This document shows, piece by piece, positions 47,994 to 56,427 of a stretch of 64,000 nucleotides of DNA. How positions within the stretch are numbered: position 1 is the stretch's first letter; each line of letters starts with the position of its first letter. The DNA is from an uncultured Acidobacteriota bacterium. GTDB taxonomy: Bacteria > Acidobacteriota > Thermoanaerobaculia > UBA5066 > Gp7-AA6. The DNA lies in contig CAVXYF010000020.1 of the NCBI GenBank assembly GCA_963765835.1, positions 20,731 to 84,730 of the forward strand, read 5' to 3'. The translations under genes were made by a program, and so were the position numbers. Below the pieces are notes generated by a model. It searched no databases, had not been told where the DNA came from, and saw nothing but the letters and a program-made list of their open reading frames with translations.

Positions 47994-50474
47994 TCAGTGC
48001 GCCAGCGGCCCTTCCGCCTCTTCCGCGTTCGCGGCCGCGAACATCAGGCGTCCGTCCTCGAACGCGGTATCGCGGAGCGTCACGGCCAGTGCCTCGCCGA
48101 GCGTCTCGACGGGGTGCACGTCCAGCTTCGCGCGCACCTCCTCGTTCAGGTCCTCGAGGTCGGCCTCGTTTTCCTTCGGGATCACGATGGTCGTGATTCC
48201 CGCGCGCACGGCCCCGAGGATCTTCTCCTTCAGGCCGCCGATCGGGAGCACCCGTCCGGAGATCGTGATCTCGCCGGTCATCGCGACGTCGTTGCGCACC
48301 GCGCGCTTCGACAACGCTGAGACGAGCGCCGACGCCATCGCGATTCCGGCGGAGGGGCCGTCCTTGGGGATCGCCCCGGCCGGGACGTGCACGTGGACGT
48401 CGCGCCGGAAGTCGGTCTCGTCGATGCCGAGCCACCCCGCGTGGGACCGCGCGAACGTCCACGCTGCCCGCGCCGACTCCTTCATCACGTCGCCCAGCTG
48501 GCCGGTCAAGATCAACTCACCCTTGCCGCGCATGAGCGACGCCTCGACGAACATGATGTCTCCGCCGGCCGGCGTGTAGTACATGCCGGTCGCGATTCCG
48601 ACCTGGTCCTCGCGAGCCATCTTCTCGGGATGGACCCGCGGCCGGCCGAGGAGTCCGCGGACGTCCTCCTGCTTGACGGTCTGCGTCTCGACGTCGTGAG
48701 CCGCGATCCGGCGGGCCACCTTCCGCGCCAGCTTCCCGAGCTCGCGCTCGAGCTGCCGGACCCCGGACTCCCGCGTGTAGCTCGAAATGACTTCCAGGAC
48801 GGCGCCCTCTTCCATCGAGAGCTGCGCCGCGGAGAGGCCGTTCTCCTCCAGCTGCCGCGGAACGAGATAGCTCTTCGCGATCTGGAGCTTCTCCTCCTCG
48901 GTGTAGCCGGCGAACGTGACCGTCTCCATCCGGTCGAGCAGCGGTCCCGGGATGTTCTGGATGAAGTTGGCCGTGGCGATGAAGAGGACCTCCGAGAGGT
49001 CGAACGGAACCGCCAGGTAGTGATCCGTGAAGCTGTCGTTCTGCGCGGGGTCCAGGACCTCGAGCAGCGCCGACGCGGGGTCGCCCTGGTACGAGACGCC
49101 CAGCTTGTCGACCTCGTCGAGAAGGAAGACCGGGTTCAACGTCCCCGCCTGCTTCATACCCTGGAGGATCCGCCCGGGCATCGCACCGATGTACGTCCGC
49201 CGGTGGCCGCGGATGTCGGCCTCGTCCCGCGCGCCGCCGAGGGAAATGCGGACGTACTTGCGTCCCATCGCGCGCGCGATCGACTTCGCGATCGAGGTCT
49301 TGCCCACGCCCGGGGGGCCGGCGAACAGGAGAATGCGTCCGCGCGCCCGCGCGGACTTGCGCAGCGCGTCCTTGGGAGCGCCCGGCTCCGGAGAGGGTTC
49401 CGCCTCGACGGCGGCCTCGGTCTCCTTCGCCTTCTCGGTCGCCTGGGTCAGCTGCCGGACCGCGAGGAACTCGAGGATCCGGTCCTTCACGTCCTTCAGG
49501 CCGTAGTGGTCCTCGTCCAGGACTCTCGCGGCTTCCTGCACATCCAGGTGCTCTTCGCTTCGCGAGTTCCACGGCAGCTCCGCGATCGTCTCCACGTAGG
49601 TGCGGATGACCTGCGACTCCATGGACTCGCGGCCGATGCGGGTCAGCCGCGCCCACTCGCGGTCGACTTCCTTGCGCGCTTCCTCGGGGAGGTCGAGCGC
49701 ATCGAGCTTCGCGCGCAGCTCCTTCAGGGACTCGTCGTCGGCGCCTTCTCCCTCGCCGAGCTCGCGCTGGATCGCCTTAAGTTGCTCGCGCAGGTACATC
49801 TCGCGCTGCCGGCCGCCCAGCTCCTCCTTCACCTTCTCCTGGATGTCCTCCTGCGCCGAGAGGACGTCGATCAGCCGCTGCACGTGAATGAGAACGCGGC
49901 GAAGCCGGTCCTCCACGGAAAGGGTCTCGAGCAGGGCCTGGCGCTCGGCGGGCGGGATCTCGATGTAACCGGCCACGAGGTCCGCGAGCCGGCCCGGCTC
50001 GTCGACCTCGGCGAGGATCTGGTTGACCGCCTCCTCCGGGAGGCCCATCTTCTTGCCGAGCTCCGCGGCACGCTCGCGCGCCTCGCGGTGCAGGGCCATG
50101 AATGCCGCGTCGTGCGAGTCGAGCGGCGTCATCTCGCGGGCTTCCTGAACGGTTGCCTCGAGATACCCCTTCTTCGACGCGTAGCGCAGCGCGATCCCCC
50201 TCGACTCGCCCTGGAGCAGGAGGCGGATGCCGCCCAGTCCCCGCTGGACCGAGCCGAGCGTGGCGATCGTGCCGATGGTGTAGAGATTCTCCGGGGCGAC
50301 TTCGTCGCCGTCCTGGCGCTGCGCCACCGCGAAAACGCGCTTGTCCGAGCCGTTCATGGCGGCCTCGATCGCGCGAAGCGTGAAAGGCCGTCCGGCGTTG
50401 ATCGGAAGTCCGACGCCCGGGAAGAGAACCGAGTTGCGCATCGGGACGACCGGTAAGTTCAGAGATTCCGACAT
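47994..50474 (-). CDS. lon: Lon protease
   Basis: N-domain [11 protein letters not shown], Walker [17 protein letters not shown], catalytic PKDGPSAG and GGLKEK. Confidence 0.97.
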
Positions 50475-50649: not shown

Positions 50650-51222
50650 CTAGCGGCCCTTCGGCCGGCGCCGGGGCGCTGACTTTTTCGCTCGCCGGCT
50701 GCGCCCGGGGAAGTCCGACGCCTTCGCCCGCTGCGTCCGTCCGAGATCCGGCTTCTTCCCGGTGACCATTCCTCTCAAGAGCTCGAAGAGCACGACGGGC
50801 TGGGGCTTCTTGATGTCGAGGAAGCTCGCGGAGTGCGCCCGGACCTTGATGAGGATCATTCGCGGATCTTCGGGGCCGCCGTCCTTCTTTCCGCCCTCGT
50901 CTCCGAACCACGCTTTCCAGTCGGGCTCGTAGAGCTCCCGGATCTTGCGGCGATTCTTGGTCGTCTCCGCTATACCCGAAACAGAAACGTATTCCCGGGT
51001 CCGGTCTTTGTAGTACGAGAGGTTCACGTGGGGATCGCGGGCGATCTCGCCCAGCTTGGCCGCGCCCTCGTACGTGACGAACCAGAAGTCCGCGCCGGGG
51101 GAGCGCTTCTGGGTCGCCATGGGCCGCGAGACGAGGTGGCCGTCGCGCCGCCGCGTCGTGAACATCGCGGTTTCGATTCCCTCGACGAGATCGTAGAGCT
51201 CACGGATCTTGCGGGATGCCAC
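50650..51222 (-). CDS. Pyridoxamine 5'-phosphate oxidase-like / general stress protein 26
   Basis: AMFTT...GHLVSRPM, FWF, VSVSG.A, W..WF..G..DP. Confidence 0.82.
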   Translation of the reverse strand: MASRKIRELYDLVEGIETAMFTTRRRDGHLVSRPMATQKRSPGADFWFVTYEGAAKLGEIARDPHVNLSYYKDRTREYVSVSGIAETTKNRRKIRELYEPDWKAWFGDEGGKKDGGPEDPRMILIKVRAHSASFLDIKKPQPVVLFELLRGMVTGKKPDLGRTQRAKASDFPGRSRRAKKSAPRRRPKGR

Positions 51223-51283: not shown

Positions 51284-51727
51284 TCAGCCGCTCCGAGGGG
51301 GAGGGTTCGACGTCTCCTCCACGAATGGCGCGAGCCTCTCGCGGATTTCGGACGGCACGGGAACCTTCCCGAAATCCTTCTGACGCACGCAGACCAGGAC
51401 GTAGCGGCCGCTCGCGACGACCTCCGGCTCCGACTTGCGCCGCACTTCGAAGTCGAGGTGCACCGACGTGCGGCCGATCCGGCTGAAGTACGCCTCGACC
51501 ACCAGAAGCTCGTCGAGCTTGACCGGCCGGAAGAAGCTGCACTCGACCCGGACGCGCGGCAGCCAGATCCCGAGCGACTCGAACAGGTACCGGTAGTTCA
51601 ACCCGGCCGACCGCAGGAGCTCCGCTTCCGCCAGCGCGAAGAACCGAAGGTACGCCTGGTAGTTGATGATGCCGGCGGCGTCGATGTCCTCCCAGCGGAC
51701 GTATTCCTCGATCGAGTAGCGGGCCAC
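51284..51727 (-). CDS. Hot-dog fold acyl-CoA thioesterase (YbgC/4HBT-like)
   Basis: VRWEDIDAAGIINYQAY, C.FFRPVKLDE, IGRTS. Confidence 0.88.
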   Translation of the reverse strand: MARYSIEEYVRWEDIDAAGIINYQAYLRFFALAEAELLRSAGLNYRYLFESLGIWLPRVRVECSFFRPVKLDELLVVEAYFSRIGRTSVHLDFEVRRKSEPEVVASGRYVLVCVRQKDFGKVPVPSEIRERLAPFVEETSNPPPRSG

Positions 51728-51767: not shown

Positions 51768-52580
51768 CTACGCCACCGCCGCCGGGCGGCAGGCCTCGCA
51801 CGGGCGGTAGCCGGCCTCCAGCGCCTCGCGATGCGACGCGAAGTGCACGCGGTTGTCGCGCATGAGCGCGTCGATGCCGCCACAGGTCGGGAAGCAGAAG
51901 TACTTCTCCTCTTCGTTCCCAAAGTAGCGAACGCCGGAGGAGGCGAGCTTCTCGAGCGTTGCGGGCTGCGCGCCCTCGGCCTCGAGGAGCGTCCTCTTGT
52001 TGCGCGGTCCGCCCAGGGAGTAGTTGCCGATGTGGCCGTCGCTGCGCACCACCCGGTGGCAGGGGATCAGCACGGGCACCGGGTTCTTGGCGAGCGCCGA
52101 TCCCGTCGCGCGCACCGCGTCGGGGTGACCGATCTCGCGCGCGATCCAGCTGTACGGCCGAACCTCGCCGCGCGGAATCTCGAAGGCCTTCCGGAGGACC
52201 GACTGTTCGAACTCCGAGAGGCCCCGGAGGTCGAAACGCAGGTTGGCGTCCCGCGCCCGGAGGCGCCCCGCCACCACGGCCCGGACGTTGGACGGCGGCT
52301 GCCCGGTATCCGATTCGATGGGACGCCCCGTCCGGCTCTCGAACGCCCTTTCGAAGTCGCGCGCCGTCCGCGCCCGCGAGACCATCGAGATCCCCTGACG
52401 GCTGCGGGCCACGTAGATGCGGCCGATCGGAGTCTCGATCGGCCAGTAGGTGTCGTTCAGGCCGACCCGCTTCAGCACCGCCGGCAGCAGGGACCGGGGA
52501 GCGCGCTCGCGGGGCAGCGCGGACAGGGAACGCGCCATGGCGAGGGTCTCCGAGGCGGTGGCTTTCTCGTTCGTTTTCAT
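51768..52580 (-). CDS. O6-alkylguanine-DNA alkyltransferase fused to a C-terminal Ada zinc-binding domain
   Basis: EIPRGEVRPY..IA..IG.P.AVRATG.AL..NPVP..IPCHRVV, then FCFPTC...FAS..EALEAGYRPCEACRP with four Cys. No AraC HTH. Confidence 0.92.
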   Translation of the reverse strand: MKTNEKATASETLAMARSLSALPRERAPRSLLPAVLKRVGLNDTYWPIETPIGRIYVARSRQGISMVSRARTARDFERAFESRTGRPIESDTGQPPSNVRAVVAGRLRARDANLRFDLRGLSEFEQSVLRKAFEIPRGEVRPYSWIAREIGHPDAVRATGSALAKNPVPVLIPCHRVVRSDGHIGNYSLGGPRNKRTLLEAEGAQPATLEKLASSGVRYFGNEEEKYFCFPTCGGIDALMRDNRVHFASHREALEAGYRPCEACRPAAVA

Positions 52581-53260
52581 GATGTCGACCTCTTGGCGCG
52601 CCGGGAGTCGGTGATGGCTCGGCGCAGAAGATTAACGGCGCGGTGGACGTTCGATTTCGCGGTGCCCAGCGGTTGCTTCAGAATCGTCGCGACTTCTTCG
52701 AGCCGCAGTCCCTCGACGTAGCGCAGGATGATCGCCGCGCGGTAGCGCTCCGGAAGCGTCGCCACGAGCGTCGCCAGTCCGGCGCGATCCTGCTCCTGCT
52801 CGAGGCGGGAGTCCGGGCGCCGGCCGGCGTCGTCCGGCGCTTCCCAGGCCTGGCGCGCCGCCTCGCCGTCGGCGCCGCCGTTCTCGAACGACACCAGGCG
52901 AACTCGTTTCCCCCTCCACTTGTTGCGCGCGACGTTCAACGTGATCCGGTAGAGCCACGCCTGGAGCGAGAGTGCACGGATGCGCTCCGCGGGATACGTC
53001 TTCAAAGCTCGATACGCGCGGACGAAGGAGTCCTGCGCGACCTCCTCGGCGTCCTCCCGGTTTCCGCAGAGGCGTAGGGCGAACGAGAACAGGCGGTCCT
53101 GAAAGGTGCGGACCAGCGACTCGAACGCCGCGTCGAGGTCGGCGGCGAGGTCCAGGGCCAGGGAGTCGGCCGGAGGCATCGCTGCGTGTCCTTTCACGAG
53201 CCGGAGCCCGGATGAGTCAAATGGAGTCGGAGAACCCTCGGTCAGGCACGTCGTGCTCAT
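52577..53260 (-). CDS. ECF sigma factor
   Basis: Region 2 DAEEVAQDSFVRAY...AWLYRITLNVARN; region 4 LPERYRAAIILRYVEGL..EEVA.IL..PLGT.KS..HRA; ATGA overlap with the downstream gene. Confidence 0.93.
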   Translation of the reverse strand: MSTTCLTEGSPTPFDSSGLRLVKGHAAMPPADSLALDLAADLDAAFESLVRTFQDRLFSFALRLCGNREDAEEVAQDSFVRAYRALKTYPAERIRALSLQAWLYRITLNVARNKWRGKRVRLVSFENGGADGEAARQAWEAPDDAGRRPDSRLEQEQDRAGLATLVATLPERYRAAIILRYVEGLRLEEVATILKQPLGTAKSNVHRAVNLLRRAITDSRRAKRSTS

Positions 53261-53280
53261 GGCGACCTCTCATGAGGAAA

Positions 53281-53307
53281 AACACGCCCGAGCTCGAAAA
53301 GGTTGCA
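53281..53307 (-). promoter_or_regulatory. Candidate ECF-type (autoregulatory) promoter
   Basis: Minus strand TGCAACC-N14-CGTGTT ends ~20 nt before ATG 53260, which has SD GAGAGG. Confidence 0.4.
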
Positions 53308-54430: not shown

Positions 54431-55387
54431 TTAGAGGCCCTGGATGCGGACTCCGCCGCCGCTCGTCCGCAACCGCAGCAGCTCGCCGCCGCCTCCCATG
54501 TTTCCCTGCAGCTTCCCGCGGGAAATCGAGCCCTCCACGGTGATGGGGACGTCCGCCCTGACCGAGTTTCCCGACGCGTCGATATGCAACCCGACGGCCG
54601 GGTCGATCGAGACCTCGATTCCGCCGCCCGAAGTCTCCAGCGTTCCGCCGCGCCCGTTGCCGCGCGCGAAAGAGGCTTCGATGCCGCCGCCGGACGTGTC
54701 GGCCTCGATGCGGCCGCCCGCCTCGAAGATATGAATGCCGCCCCCGGAGCTGTGCGCGCGGATGTCGCCCGAGACGCGGTCCAGGCGCACGGAGCCTCCG
54801 CTCGTGTCCGCGTCGATCGGGCCGTCGATCTCGCGGCCCTCGATTCCGCCGCCCGAGGTCTCGACGTTCACCCGCCCCCGGATTCGCTCCAGGTCGATCC
54901 CGCCGCCCGACGTGTGTCCCTCGAGGTCGCCGGAGAGATCCTGAACGTGGATTCCGCCGCCGGAGGTTTCGAGCTTCGCCTCCGACCGCAGGGCCGCGAT
55001 CCGGATCGCCCCGCCCGACGTATCGATGTCGACCGCCGTCTGGGTGGGGACCTGGATCTCGAAGTGGACGTCTCCGCCCGAACGATTCCAGGGGAAGAGG
55101 TGCCCGTGCCGGCGCCGCGCGGTGACGGAGACCGCTCCGGCGTCCTCCCGGAAGGTGAACCGGAGCAGCTCGTCGAGCTCGCGCCTGCGGGAGGTCACGA
55201 CCAGCCGGGCCCCCGGAGCGCTCGTACCCGTGACGGTGACGCTGCCGAGGTCGGTCTGAATGGAGAACCGTCCGCCGGGATCGAGCCGAAGCGCCTTTTC
55301 CATCCGGGATTCCGCCCGGGCGCCCAGAGCCGGAAGGACGATTCCTGCGAAAAGGAGCGCGGCGCGGCCGGTGTTCGGCAGTTTCAT
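54431..55387 (-). CDS. DUF4097 family beta-strand repeat protein (exported)
   Basis: Signal peptide plus about 8 (D/E/H)TSGG.I repeats. Confidence 0.9.
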   Translation of the reverse strand: MKLPNTGRAALLFAGIVLPALGARAESRMEKALRLDPGGRFSIQTDLGSVTVTGTSAPGARLVVTSRRRELDELLRFTFREDAGAVSVTARRRHGHLFPWNRSGGDVHFEIQVPTQTAVDIDTSGGAIRIAALRSEAKLETSGGGIHVQDLSGDLEGHTSGGGIDLERIRGRVNVETSGGGIEGREIDGPIDADTSGGSVRLDRVSGDIRAHSSGGGIHIFEAGGRIEADTSGGGIEASFARGNGRGGTLETSGGGIEVSIDPAVGLHIDASGNSVRADVPITVEGSISRGKLQGNMGGGGELLRLRTSGGGVRIQGL

Positions 55388-56427
55388 GGAGACCTCCGTC
55401 TGCGGATGTCTAACGCAGGCGGGGGCCGAAGGTTCCTCCAAAGTGGCAAGTGGAGGCTTAAACACCGTCGCTGGACTGTTGCGGGTGCAGACCCCTTCGG
55501 GATCTGTCCCCGCGACTCTTCCTGGGTGGGGACGTCCGCGCCCTCAGGCTTGGTCTTCGCCCCCTTCTCCGGGGGGACAACGTGTTTCTCGATCCGCTCG
55601 GAGTAGGCCCGGGTGAACTCCGCGCCGAGCAGGACGATGAACGAGGCGTAGTAGACCCACAGGAGGATGACGATGACGGAGCCCGCCGCGCCGTACGTGG
55701 AGGAGATGGCGGCGCGGCCGAGGTAGAGGCCGATCGCCCACTTGCCGACGACGAAGAGGAGAGCGGTCACGAGCGCCCCGAGCCACACGTCGCGCCACGG
55801 AATCTTCCGGTCCGGGAGAACGCGGAAGACCAGCGCGAAGAGGACCGCGACCAGCAGGAACGAGACGATCGCGTTCAGCCACCCGAGCCACGCGGCCTGC
55901 GTCGCGAAGTAGCTCGCGACCCGGCTCTGAACCGCCTCCAGGCCGGCCGACAGGACCAGGGAGACGAGGAGGATGAACCCGATCGCGACGACGACCGCGA
56001 AGGACAGCAGGCGTTTCCGGAGGAAGTCCTTGATGAAGTGCCCGCTCTTCGGCTTGACCTCCCAGATGCGGTTCAGCGAGGCCTGGAGCTGGGCGAAGAC
56101 GGCTGTCGCGCTGACGATCAGCAGGATCGCTCCAAAAATCGCGGCCAGCCCGCTCGCCGGGTCGGTATTCGCCTTGGTCAGAACCGTCTGGACGAAGCCG
56201 GCCTGATCGCGACCCATCAGGCCTTCGAACTGCCGGACGAGGCGGCCCCGAACCGCGTCGGCGCCGAAAATCGAGCCGGCCACGGCGACTACGATGACCA
56301 GCAGGGGAGCGAGCGAGGAGACCGTGTAGAAAGCGAGCGCGGCGCTCTCCGACGTCGAGTCGTGCGCGAACCAGTTCTTGAAGGTGCGGACGATGACGTC
56401 GCGCCAGCGCTTGAACTTCACCTTCAC
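55384..56427 (-). CDS. YihY/BrkB family membrane protein; C-terminus extended through a repeat
   Basis: SAALAFY...SLAPLL, QLQASLNRIW, YGAAGS.IV.LLWVYY.S.I.LLGAEF. Confidence 0.9.
   Translation of the reverse strand: MKVKFKRWRDVIVRTFKNWFAHDSTSESAALAFYTVSSLAPLLVIVVAVAGSIFGADAVRGRLVRQFEGLMGRDQAGFVQTVLTKANTDPASGLAAIFGAILLIVSATAVFAQLQASLNRIWEVKPKSGHFIKDFLRKRLLSFAVVVAIGFILLVSLVLSAGLEAVQSRVASYFATQAAWLGWLNAIVSFLLVAVLFALVFRVLPDRKIPWRDVWLGALVTALLFVVGKWAIGLYLGRAAISSTYGAAGSVIVILLWVYYASFIVLLGAEFTRAYSERIEKHVVPPEKGAKTKPEGADVPTQEESRGQIPKGSAPATVQRRCLSLHLPLWRNLRPPPALDIRRRRSP
55409..55436 (-). promoter_or_regulatory. ECF-type promoter for the DUF4097 gene
   Basis: Minus strand GGAAC-N16-CGTTAG, followed by SD GGAGG and ATG 55387. 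Confidence 0.6.
55473..55517 (-). repeat. Dispersed palindromic repeat copy in the yihY 3' end
   Basis: GGACTGTTGCGGGTGCAGACCCCTTCGGGATCTGTCCCCGCGACT; a direct repeat of 54383-54427 with 3 mismatches. Confidence 0.9.

Follow-up and report, generated by a model that had tools for sequence, protein, structure and literature searches.

A stretch of 64,000 nucleotides (nt) from an uncultured Acidobacteriota bacterium (contig CAVXYF010000020.1, positions 20,731 to 84,730; referred to as the window) carries on its minus strand the gene of an extracytoplasmic function (ECF) sigma factor and, overlapping its 3′ end, the gene of a 270-amino-acid (aa) partner protein, which combines an alkyltransferase with a zinc domain of the Ada type. 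An original prediction, made from the sequence alone, had interpreted the two genes as a sigma/anti-sigma system that senses DNA alkylation. The pair was found to be kept across several phyla and is therefore probably, as far as the comparison of sequences allows, a way of switching on alkylation repair. That the partner itself acts as the anti-sigma factor is proposed here tentatively.

The two open reading frames (ORFs) and their overlap via ATGA were confirmed as predicted. In the order of transcription, the module consists of the following features.

53281..53307, minus strand: ECF-type promoter with the -35 element TGCAACC (53307-53301), a 14-nt spacer and the -10 element CGTGTT (53286-53281), from sequence reading and comparison
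53266..53271, minus strand: Shine-Dalgarno-like GAGAGG, 5 nt 5′ of the sigma ATG (53260), from sequence reading
52577..53260, minus strand: ECF (group IV) sigma gene, 227 aa, from Pfam and NCBIfam
52904-53116, minus strand: sigma2 domain, residues 49-119
52622-52777, minus strand: sigma4 domain, residues 162-213
52577..52580, minus strand: ATGA, shared by the TGA stop of the sigma gene and the ATG of the partner gene (translational coupling), from sequence reading
51768..52580, minus strand: partner gene, 270 aa, with an N-terminal two-helix segment, an O6-alkylguanine-DNA alkyltransferase (AGT) and an Ada-type Cys4 zinc domain
52443..52580, minus strand: N-terminal segment of the partner, residues 1-46, candidate sigma-binding module, from conservation and predicted helices
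52221..52442, minus strand: alkyltransferase N-terminal (ribonuclease-like) domain, residues 47-120, weak Methyltransf_1N match
51969..52214, minus strand: alkyltransferase catalytic domain, residues 123-204, Pfam DNA_binding_1 (MGMT), E=1.1e-27
52050-52064, minus strand: PCHRV, residues 173-177, with the acceptor Cys174, from sequence reading
51783..51935, minus strand: Ada-type zinc domain, residues 216-266, Pfam Ada_Zn_binding, E=1.8e-9

Domains of the sigma factor and its partner

The sigma factor matched the Pfam models Sigma70_r2 (residues 49-119, E=1.4e-14), Sigma70_r4_2 (residues 162-209, E=4.4e-13) and Sigma70_ECF, and reached 82.7 bits for NCBIfam TIGR02937 (cut-off 42.9). It has only sigma2 and sigma4 domains, lacks regions 3 and 1.1 and is, with 227 aa, within the length expected for ECF group IV (about 170-230 aa). 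In a search of representative sequences, residues 1-27 turned out to be clade-specific, the conservation beginning at about residue 27-34. Ahead of region 2.1 there is a conserved helix with the motif LAxxLAxDLDxxF.

For the partner, 88.3 bits were obtained with TIGR00589 (cut-off 46.4). An alignment of 68 sequences (46-95% identity) showed that R157, N166, C174, H175, R176, Y187, E202 and the four zinc cysteines are invariant. The same alignment was used for the AlphaFold2 prediction, which resulted in a model with a predicted local distance difference test (pLDDT) of 89.3 and a predicted TM-score (pTM) of 0.82. Using Foldseek, the body of the model was matched to the C-terminal domain of E. 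coli Ada (1sfe; E=1.6e-12, target-normalized TM-score (TMt) 0.81), human AGT and M. tuberculosis Ogt, the alignments of the whole chain to Ogt/AGT structures spanning about 165-175 residues, and its C-terminal domain was matched to methylated N-Ada (1u8b). Judged by sequence and model, the partner appears to have everything that defines the MGMT/Ogt/Ada-C family, namely PCHRV, the Asn hinge, the Arg finger, the network of Tyr and Glu and the two-domain fold.

In the zinc domain, C229, C233, C261 and C264 align to C38, C42, C69 and C72 of E. coli Ada (phmmer against 1adn and 1u8b), and therefore the methyl acceptor (C229) and the three other ligands are present. All four cysteines of an Ada zinc domain are there, but the domain is C-terminal, shortened (profile positions 15-64 of 65) and not basic. 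Its net charge is about -1 in the window's clade, compared with a mean of about +4 in the Chloroflexota-type members and most others and +6 in E. coli N-Ada. In the window's clade, basic residues are replaced after the second cysteine (CGGID vs. CRARH in E. coli) and inside the CxxC (CEAC vs. CKRC).

The AraC-type helix-turn-helix (HTH) of Ada is missing: neither HTH_AraC nor HTH_18 was matched in Pfam at E<=0.01, and the NCBIfam equivalog model for Ada (NF011964/PRK15435) gave 100 bits at a cut-off of 345. The domain composition that had been predicted for the partner, an alkyltransferase with PCHRV followed by a C-terminal Ada zinc domain with all four cysteines and no AraC HTH, was thus verified by Pfam, phmmer and reading of the sequence.

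Conservation of the pair, its promoter and the putative regulon

For the genome scan one genome per species was used, and 80 loci with full-length relatives of the partner (46-89% identity) were obtained. These belong to the Thermoanaerobaculia and other Acidobacteriota, to the Chloroflexota (Ktedonobacterales, Anaerolineae, Limnocylindrales) and to the Dormiibacterota, in addition to one metagenome-assembled genome (MAG) of the Actinomycetota and one MAG labelled Proteobacteria. Metagenomes contain numerous further homologues. In 79 of the 80 loci, the partner gene is directly preceded by a homologue of the window's sigma gene in the same orientation, and in nearly all of these 79 the stop and start codons overlap (ATGA or longer). 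By clustering of the ORFs over these loci, no further neighbour kept across phyla was found, so that no third gene could be named as a candidate anti-sigma factor. Likewise, no gene containing an anti-sigma domain (ASD) was found near the sigma gene by Pfam and neighbour clustering. Of the genes flanking the window's pair, Pyr_redox_3 on the upstream side and the thioesterase gene on the downstream side occur in Acidobacteriota only. In many of the Dormiibacterota loci (L051-L080), the module is preceded at about 1-2 kb by a match to a second, divergently oriented ECF sigma factor, together with a conserved membrane-type protein of about 270 aa.

Annotated plasmid records, searched with tblastn, yielded cultured actinobacterial carriers. 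Rubrobacter radiotolerans has the pair as sigma factor WP_051590067.1 and MGMT WP_084264190.1. In Streptomyces spp. NBC_00464 and NBC_00503, the sigma gene is followed by the gene of an 'Ada metal-binding domain-containing protein' and then by a separate, canonical MGMT gene. Actinobacterial sigma factors paired with this type of partner (MGMT-Ada-Zn) share 38-44% identity with that of the window. The Streptomyces partner has kept PCHR and the Cys4 site and has lost the DNA-contact residues of the Arg finger and the recognition helix. With the acceptor sites kept, the DNA contacts lost and a separate MGMT gene adjoining, this protein fits a specialised sensor, and its sequence suggests that it is dedicated to this role. 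On the linear Streptomyces plasmids (L082, NBC_00464, 1-5433; L085, NBC_00503, 1252-7717) the cassette adjoins genes for an AfsR/SARP regulator, metK, metF and metH; this context may be linked to the making of a methylating metabolite or to self-protection from it.

A plasmid of Tsukamurella tyrosinosolvens (L083, 3016-5974) carries five overlapping genes, which encode Ogt, an ECF sigma factor (156 aa), an MGMT (200 aa), a 2-oxoglutarate (2OG)-Fe(II) oxygenase and AlkB. Here, the sigma factor is 28% identical to that of the window, and the partner lacks a zinc domain but has a helix at its N-terminus. By its sequence, the Tsukamurella pair may be an independent or highly divergent version, possibly a second ECF lineage using an MGMT partner. 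The expected conservation was found for the pair, in 79 of 80 loci and several phyla, but the zinc domain is not universal among sigma-linked partners. Due to its absence in Tsukamurella, the alkyltransferase cysteine may equal the Ada-type cysteine as a candidate for the trigger.

The promoter-like sequence of the window, whose -10 element is 20 nt away from the sigma ATG, was compared between the loci. A scan for G(C/T)AAC-N15-16-(G/C/T)(T/G)GTT in the 330 nt preceding the sigma core showed that the motif TGCAACC-N14-(C/G/T)GTGTT precedes the sigma gene in 73 of the 79 loci. The rest of the locus sequence (1.2 Mb, both strands) contains 15 matches (about one per 80 kb). TGAAAC-N16-GTGTT is found ahead of the Rubrobacter sigma gene and GGCAACC-N14-GGTGTT ahead of the Streptomyces sigma gene. 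With 'AAC' in the -35 element, a G/T-rich, 'CGT'-type -10 element and a putatively autoregulatory position, the sequence has the features of an ECF promoter, and the motif is read here as the signature of an autoregulated one. The ECF-like promoter proposed for the window was thereby corroborated, and the motif (T/G)GCAAC...CGT given in the original prediction proved right as far as it goes but incomplete, since the conserved -10 element is (C/G/T)GTGTT.

Three of the 15 other matches (L019, L021 and L025) lie on the opposite strand and diverge from the sigma operon. In two of them (L019, L021) the motif is located directly 5′ of two genes, the first for an oxygenase (PF09859 'Oxygenase-NA', E=6e-73) and the second for an AlkA-type glycosylase (HhH-GPD, AlkA_N); in the third (L025) the oxygenase gene is absent and the motif stands directly 5′ of alkA. 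The presence of the motif before alkA and 2OG-oxygenase genes suggests an autoregulated alkylation-repair regulon, and together with the Tsukamurella operon it ties the module to alkylation repair. The proposed search for a regulon by means of the motif was therefore productive in these three loci, but did not reveal a further site in the 64-kb window.

Downstream of the partner gene, two more genes were annotated on the same strand.

51284..51727, minus strand: 4HBT-type thioesterase, 40 nt downstream of the partner gene, from Pfam; in 19 loci, Acidobacteriota only
50650..51222, minus strand: next gene, PNPOx-like (general-stress-type) protein, Pfam Pyrid_ox_like, E=3.3e-34

No terminator-like site was found here on the minus strand, and the thioesterase gene may be co-transcribed with the pair; the operon membership of the PNPOx-like gene is uncertain. 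Beyond these two genes, at a distance of about 1.3 kb from the module, there is an ORF of 826 aa (47994-50474, minus strand) that is Lon protease-like by its sequence motifs and of relevance only because alkylated alkyltransferases are protease substrates. Two more minus-strand ORFs lie on the other side of the module. One encodes a predicted secreted or membrane protein of 344 aa (54431-55465) with many 'TSGGGI' repeats, which is beta-helix- or adhesin-like, and its upstream end is overlapped by the ORF of a YihY/BrkB-like membrane protein (55384-56427).

The N-terminal segment and the proposed mechanism

The N-terminal segment of the partner, which reads LSALPRERAPRSLLPAVLKRV in residues 19-39, contains two helices predicted by AlphaFold2, at residues 9-20 (motif (A)RxLxxLRxL) and 31-38 (motif APxxLLPAVLxRVGLxDxYW), after which the strands of the alkyltransferase N-terminal domain follow. 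Its family consensus is (A)RxLxxLRxL, a spacing of 4-5 residues and APxxLxxxVLxxVGLxDxY(W/F). P28 is invariant, A27 and L19 are conserved to at least 90%, and the partners of the Dormiibacterota start only about 10 residues ahead of the AP motif. A profile search of the PDB with the segment gave non-significant matches only. Among these, there is a weak one to B. subtilis RsiW 54-71, 'TSHVEAPADFTANVMAKL' (E=1.6), which we take to be the helix-4 region of RsiW. The segment, with about 45 aa, two predicted helices, no HxxxCxxC and no model match, is not a class I anti-sigma domain; its size and secondary structure are class II-like and do not allow it to be filed as class I. Its resemblance to anti-sigma helices, as originally predicted, thus held with respect to conservation and the two predicted helices, but not at the level of family models or of a significant match.

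The segment is missing in a single clade only, of which six proteins or loci were examined (P0391, identical to L053, and P0392, P0397, P0398, P0400 and P0454), and the sigma gene is absent there too. L053, which retains a decayed remnant of the segment, is the sole one of the 80 loci without a sigma gene. In this clade (L053, L086-L093), the context consists of genes for a PucR-like (GGDEF_2/HTH_30) regulator, a short-chain dehydrogenase (adh_short) and a 2-hydroxyacid dehydrogenase (2-Hacid_dh), followed by the MGMT-AdaZn gene and, where the contig reaches far enough, by a MerR gene and in some loci by a major facilitator superfamily gene. In L053 the start codon of the MGMT-AdaZn gene overlaps the stop codon of the dehydrogenase gene.

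By a search with the concatenated sigma-partner pair, four fused ORFs were detected, three of which have garbled junctions or frameshifted domains. The fourth, P0122 (463 aa), is fused cleanly and in frame, but is a singleton; the name of its contig, contig_41406, suggests a long-read assembly. Frameshifted or run-on ORFs at the sigma-partner junction or inside the genes, which lead to spurious 'fusions' in the database, were noticed in L014, L017, L025, L032, L035, L037, P0121, P0136 and P0140, and several of these loci come from the MFD-labelled series of uncultured Acidobacteriota MAGs.

P0122 was modelled with AlphaFold2 from a mixed alignment of 75 sequences, which resulted in a pLDDT of 87.7. 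In a Foldseek search, its sigma part was closed and nearest to CnrH of the CnrH-CnrY complex (4cxf_A, TMt 0.82, root-mean-square deviation 3.2), followed by SigW-RsiW (TMt 0.77), and far from RseA- or MucA-bound and holoenzyme-bound sigma factors (TMt 0.37-0.45). Because AlphaFold2 may fold a lone ECF sigma factor in the same way, the closed conformation is weak, non-decisive support for an interaction.

The reading favoured here, although rated a little short of probable, is that sigma factor and partner form a self-contained, autoregulated two-gene module for the sensing of DNA alkylation, in which the partner is the anti-sigma factor. Both proteins are made from the putatively sigma-dependent promoter TGCAACC-N14-CGTGTT. 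Since the sigma factor's own promoter motif implies positive autoregulation, a post-translational brake is needed. In the absence of damage, the conserved two-helix segment would keep the sigma factor inactive, in a way similar to short 'wrap-around' anti-sigma factors such as CnrY, with one helix on sigma4 and one on sigma2. The partner would double as a suicide repair protein, of which Cys174 would accept alkyl groups from O6-alkylguanine and Cys229 of the zinc site methyl groups (in E. coli Ada, from DNA methylphosphotriesters). Irreversible alkylation of Cys174 and/or Cys229 would alter or destabilise the partner, by which the sigma factor would be freed, and free sigma factor would transcribe its own operon and distant repair genes, e.g., alkA and the gene of the 2OG-Fe(II) DNA-repair oxygenase. 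Fresh unmodified partner, made one-for-one with the sigma factor, would end the response once the lesions are gone.

Two lines of published work bear on this proposal. In alkylated AGTs the contact between the N- and C-terminal domains is disrupted, and the proteins are destabilised and degraded (PMC4605297); because the segment is attached to the alkyltransferase N-terminal domain, such an interdomain disruption is a plausible signal route. Helix 4 of class I anti-sigma factors binds regions 2.1 and 2.2 of sigma2, and the two helices of CnrY contact sigma4 and sigma2 as helices 1 and 4 of class I do (PMC7406223). That the Tsukamurella partner has no zinc domain, and that this domain is nearly uncharged in the window's clade, points to the alkyltransferase cysteine as the possibly more general trigger. 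Functionally, the module would then be an Ada adaptive response with a separate sigma subunit in place of Ada's HTH. It is also possible, if somewhat doubtful, that the suicide repair enzyme is a stoichiometric anti-sigma factor, each lesion consuming one inhibitor and freeing one sigma factor; if true, the transcription of the repair regulon would be metered by the flux of lesions.

Several observations weigh against an anti-sigma role of the partner. In Pfam and NCBIfam, the segment has no match to any model, anti-sigma models included, neither with single sequences nor with 42 family members and even at E<=10. Helix 2 is confidently placed in the model of the partner monomer (pLDDT 88) and may simply belong to the fold of the alkyltransferase N-terminal domain. 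The loss of the segment coincides with the loss of the sigma factor, but it is a single evolutionary event. The natural fusions (L014, L017, P0121, P0136, P0140 and P0122) were rejected as evidence of an interaction, as they are singletons and most of them clearly indel artefacts, the junctions of all but P0122 being frameshifted or garbled. In the model of P0122 the pTM is low (0.58), and the segment has a pLDDT of 52-69 compared with 75-88 in the window's partner modelled alone. With regard to the regulon, no second copy of the promoter motif was found in the 64-kb window, nor an alkA gene, an oxygenase homologue or a second ECF sigma gene, and the regulon is inferred from three related genomes. 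Furthermore, the access of the window's zinc domain to DNA phosphotriesters is uncertain due to its near-neutral charge (-1 vs. +6).

It is unlikely, although to be taken seriously, that the partner is a repair enzyme only and itself a target of the regulon, with the sigma factor controlled otherwise (by transcription, proteolysis or an unlinked factor) and the segment serving as a structural extension of the alkyltransferase N-terminal domain. Such a role would agree with the intact set of catalytic residues, with the confident placement of helix 2 within the monomer and with the lack of a confident docking by AlphaFold2 on the fused ORF, and the ECF reclassification carries the warning that a conserved neighbour can be a target and not a regulator (PMC7826278). 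Unlike ordinary regulon members, however, the partner is kept in stop/start overlap with the sigma gene across phyla (79 of 80 loci) while all other neighbours change, and the segment vanishes where the sigma factor is lost. The autoregulatory promoter needs a brake, for which there is no other conserved candidate, and the Streptomyces partner seems degenerate for DNA repair and is backed by a separate MGMT gene.

A role of the partner as a positive co-factor on the sigma factor or the holoenzyme appears rather improbable. In this case, methylation of the zinc-site cysteine, by which negative charge is lost as in N-Ada, would aid promoter binding or open complex formation, and methylated partner and sigma factor together would be the activator, analogous to methylated Ada contacting sigma70. 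Methylated Ada of E. coli activates transcription via contacts with sigma70 region 4 and the C-terminal domain of the alpha subunit. The intact Ada-type Cys4 site, with its acceptor aligned to Ada C38, and the basic zinc domain (mean about +4) of most members outside the window's clade are in favour of this role, and the tight one-for-one coupling suits any stable partner. It is at odds with the sigma-linked Tsukamurella partner without a zinc domain and with the about neutral zinc domain of the window, and genes translationally coupled behind an ECF sigma gene are mostly inhibitors. Furthermore, no conserved 'Ada box' was noticed beside the -35 element, although no systematic search for one was made. 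The assumption, finally, that adjacency and promoter-like motif are due to chance in a GC-rich genome deserves practically no credence: a shuffled window is expected to contain GCAAC-N15-CGTG about 0.56 times, so that a single site proves nothing, but across several phyla the synteny is found in 79 of 80 loci and the motif recurs in the corresponding position in 73 of 79, which refutes it.

The module bears on how bacteria outside the Ada/AraC paradigm induce their alkylation repair. If the partner is the sensor, it would represent a new class of cytoplasmic anti-sigma factor whose signal is an irreversible covalent transfer from damaged DNA. It would be the first anti-sigma factor inactivated by the transfer of a DNA adduct, and the Acidobacteriota, Chloroflexota, Dormiibacterota and Actinomycetota would have an ECF-based adaptive response. 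Such a circuit would be proportional to the damage and would offer synthetic biology a compact, orthogonal alkylation-responsive switch. The idea can be tested in cultured Rubrobacter, Streptomyces and Tsukamurella, and a defined promoter motif, candidate regulon genes and a separable segment are at hand.

Comparison with known systems

The association of an ECF sigma factor with an MGMT gene has already been catalogued. In a review of non-canonical ECF sigma factors, group ECF122 is listed with an 'unknown mechanism' and with conserved 6-O-methylguanine DNA methyltransferase neighbours as possible regulators, the example being WP_057211282.1 of Cellulomonas sp. Root930 (PMC8999054). The group comes from the Huang 2015/Casas-Pastor 2021 classification, and according to the ECF reclassification the conserved neighbours of such groups may be regulators or targets (PMC7826278). 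ECF122-type sigma factors are among the few ECF groups without a known control mechanism. The original prediction knew of no characterised example, and in the full-text literature searches no experimental study of an ECF-MGMT pair was found either; the pairing as such, however, was not new. The texts consulted on ECF122, including PMC8999054 and PMC7826278, mention neither the spread to Acidobacteriota, Chloroflexota and Dormiibacterota nor the promoter motif, the link to alkA and the oxygenase, the Ada-type zinc domain, the N-terminal segment or its joint loss with the sigma factor.

Like ECF122, the sigma factors of 79 of the 80 loci lack a canonical anti-sigma factor and have a conserved neighbour of the MGMT family. 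The window's sigma factor is a candidate member of this group on the grounds of the neighbouring gene and, indirectly, of 38-44% identity to actinobacterial sigma factors with such a partner. The window differs in that it comes from Thermoanaerobaculia-like Acidobacteriota, with most relatives in the Chloroflexota or Dormiibacterota. Given the distant Tsukamurella sigma factor (28%), more than one ECF group may be paired with MGMT.

Among the anti-sigma factors, RsrA and RsiW (zinc-associated, with a class I ASD) are likewise cytoplasmic sigma antagonists, and the reactive zinc-bound cysteines of RsrA can sense covalently. The helix-2 motif vxAPxxLxxxVLxxv can be set beside RsiW 54-71 'VEAPADFTANVMAKL', a non-significant similarity (E=1.6). 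In contrast to both proteins, the partner has neither a four-helix ASD nor HxxxCxxC, and its zinc-site cysteines make up a Cys4 site of the Ada type, in a C-terminal domain of their own. Class II anti-sigma factors (CnrY of Cupriavidus metallidurans and the NepR type) are similar in having a short two-helix element of about 45 residues, and in the fused-ORF model the sigma factor is predicted to be closed like CnrH (4cxf_A, TMt 0.82; model pTM 0.58). No sequence similarity between CnrY and the segment could be detected. CnrY is a membrane protein that senses periplasmic metal through CnrX, whereas the segment, a candidate for binding to the sigma factor, is fused to a cytoplasmic enzyme.

The partner appears to share with E. 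coli Ada both suicide methyl-acceptor modules, the Cys4 zinc domain and the alkyltransferase with PCHRV. The output logic seems to be similar as well, with self-induction, alkA and repair genes of the oxidative-demethylase type. In contrast to Ada, the order is reversed, with the alkyltransferase first and the zinc domain last, the AraC HTH is missing (100 vs. 345 bits), and the zinc domain of the window's clade is not basic. In place of an HTH of its own, the partner would rely on a separate ECF sigma factor to supply the DNA targeting.

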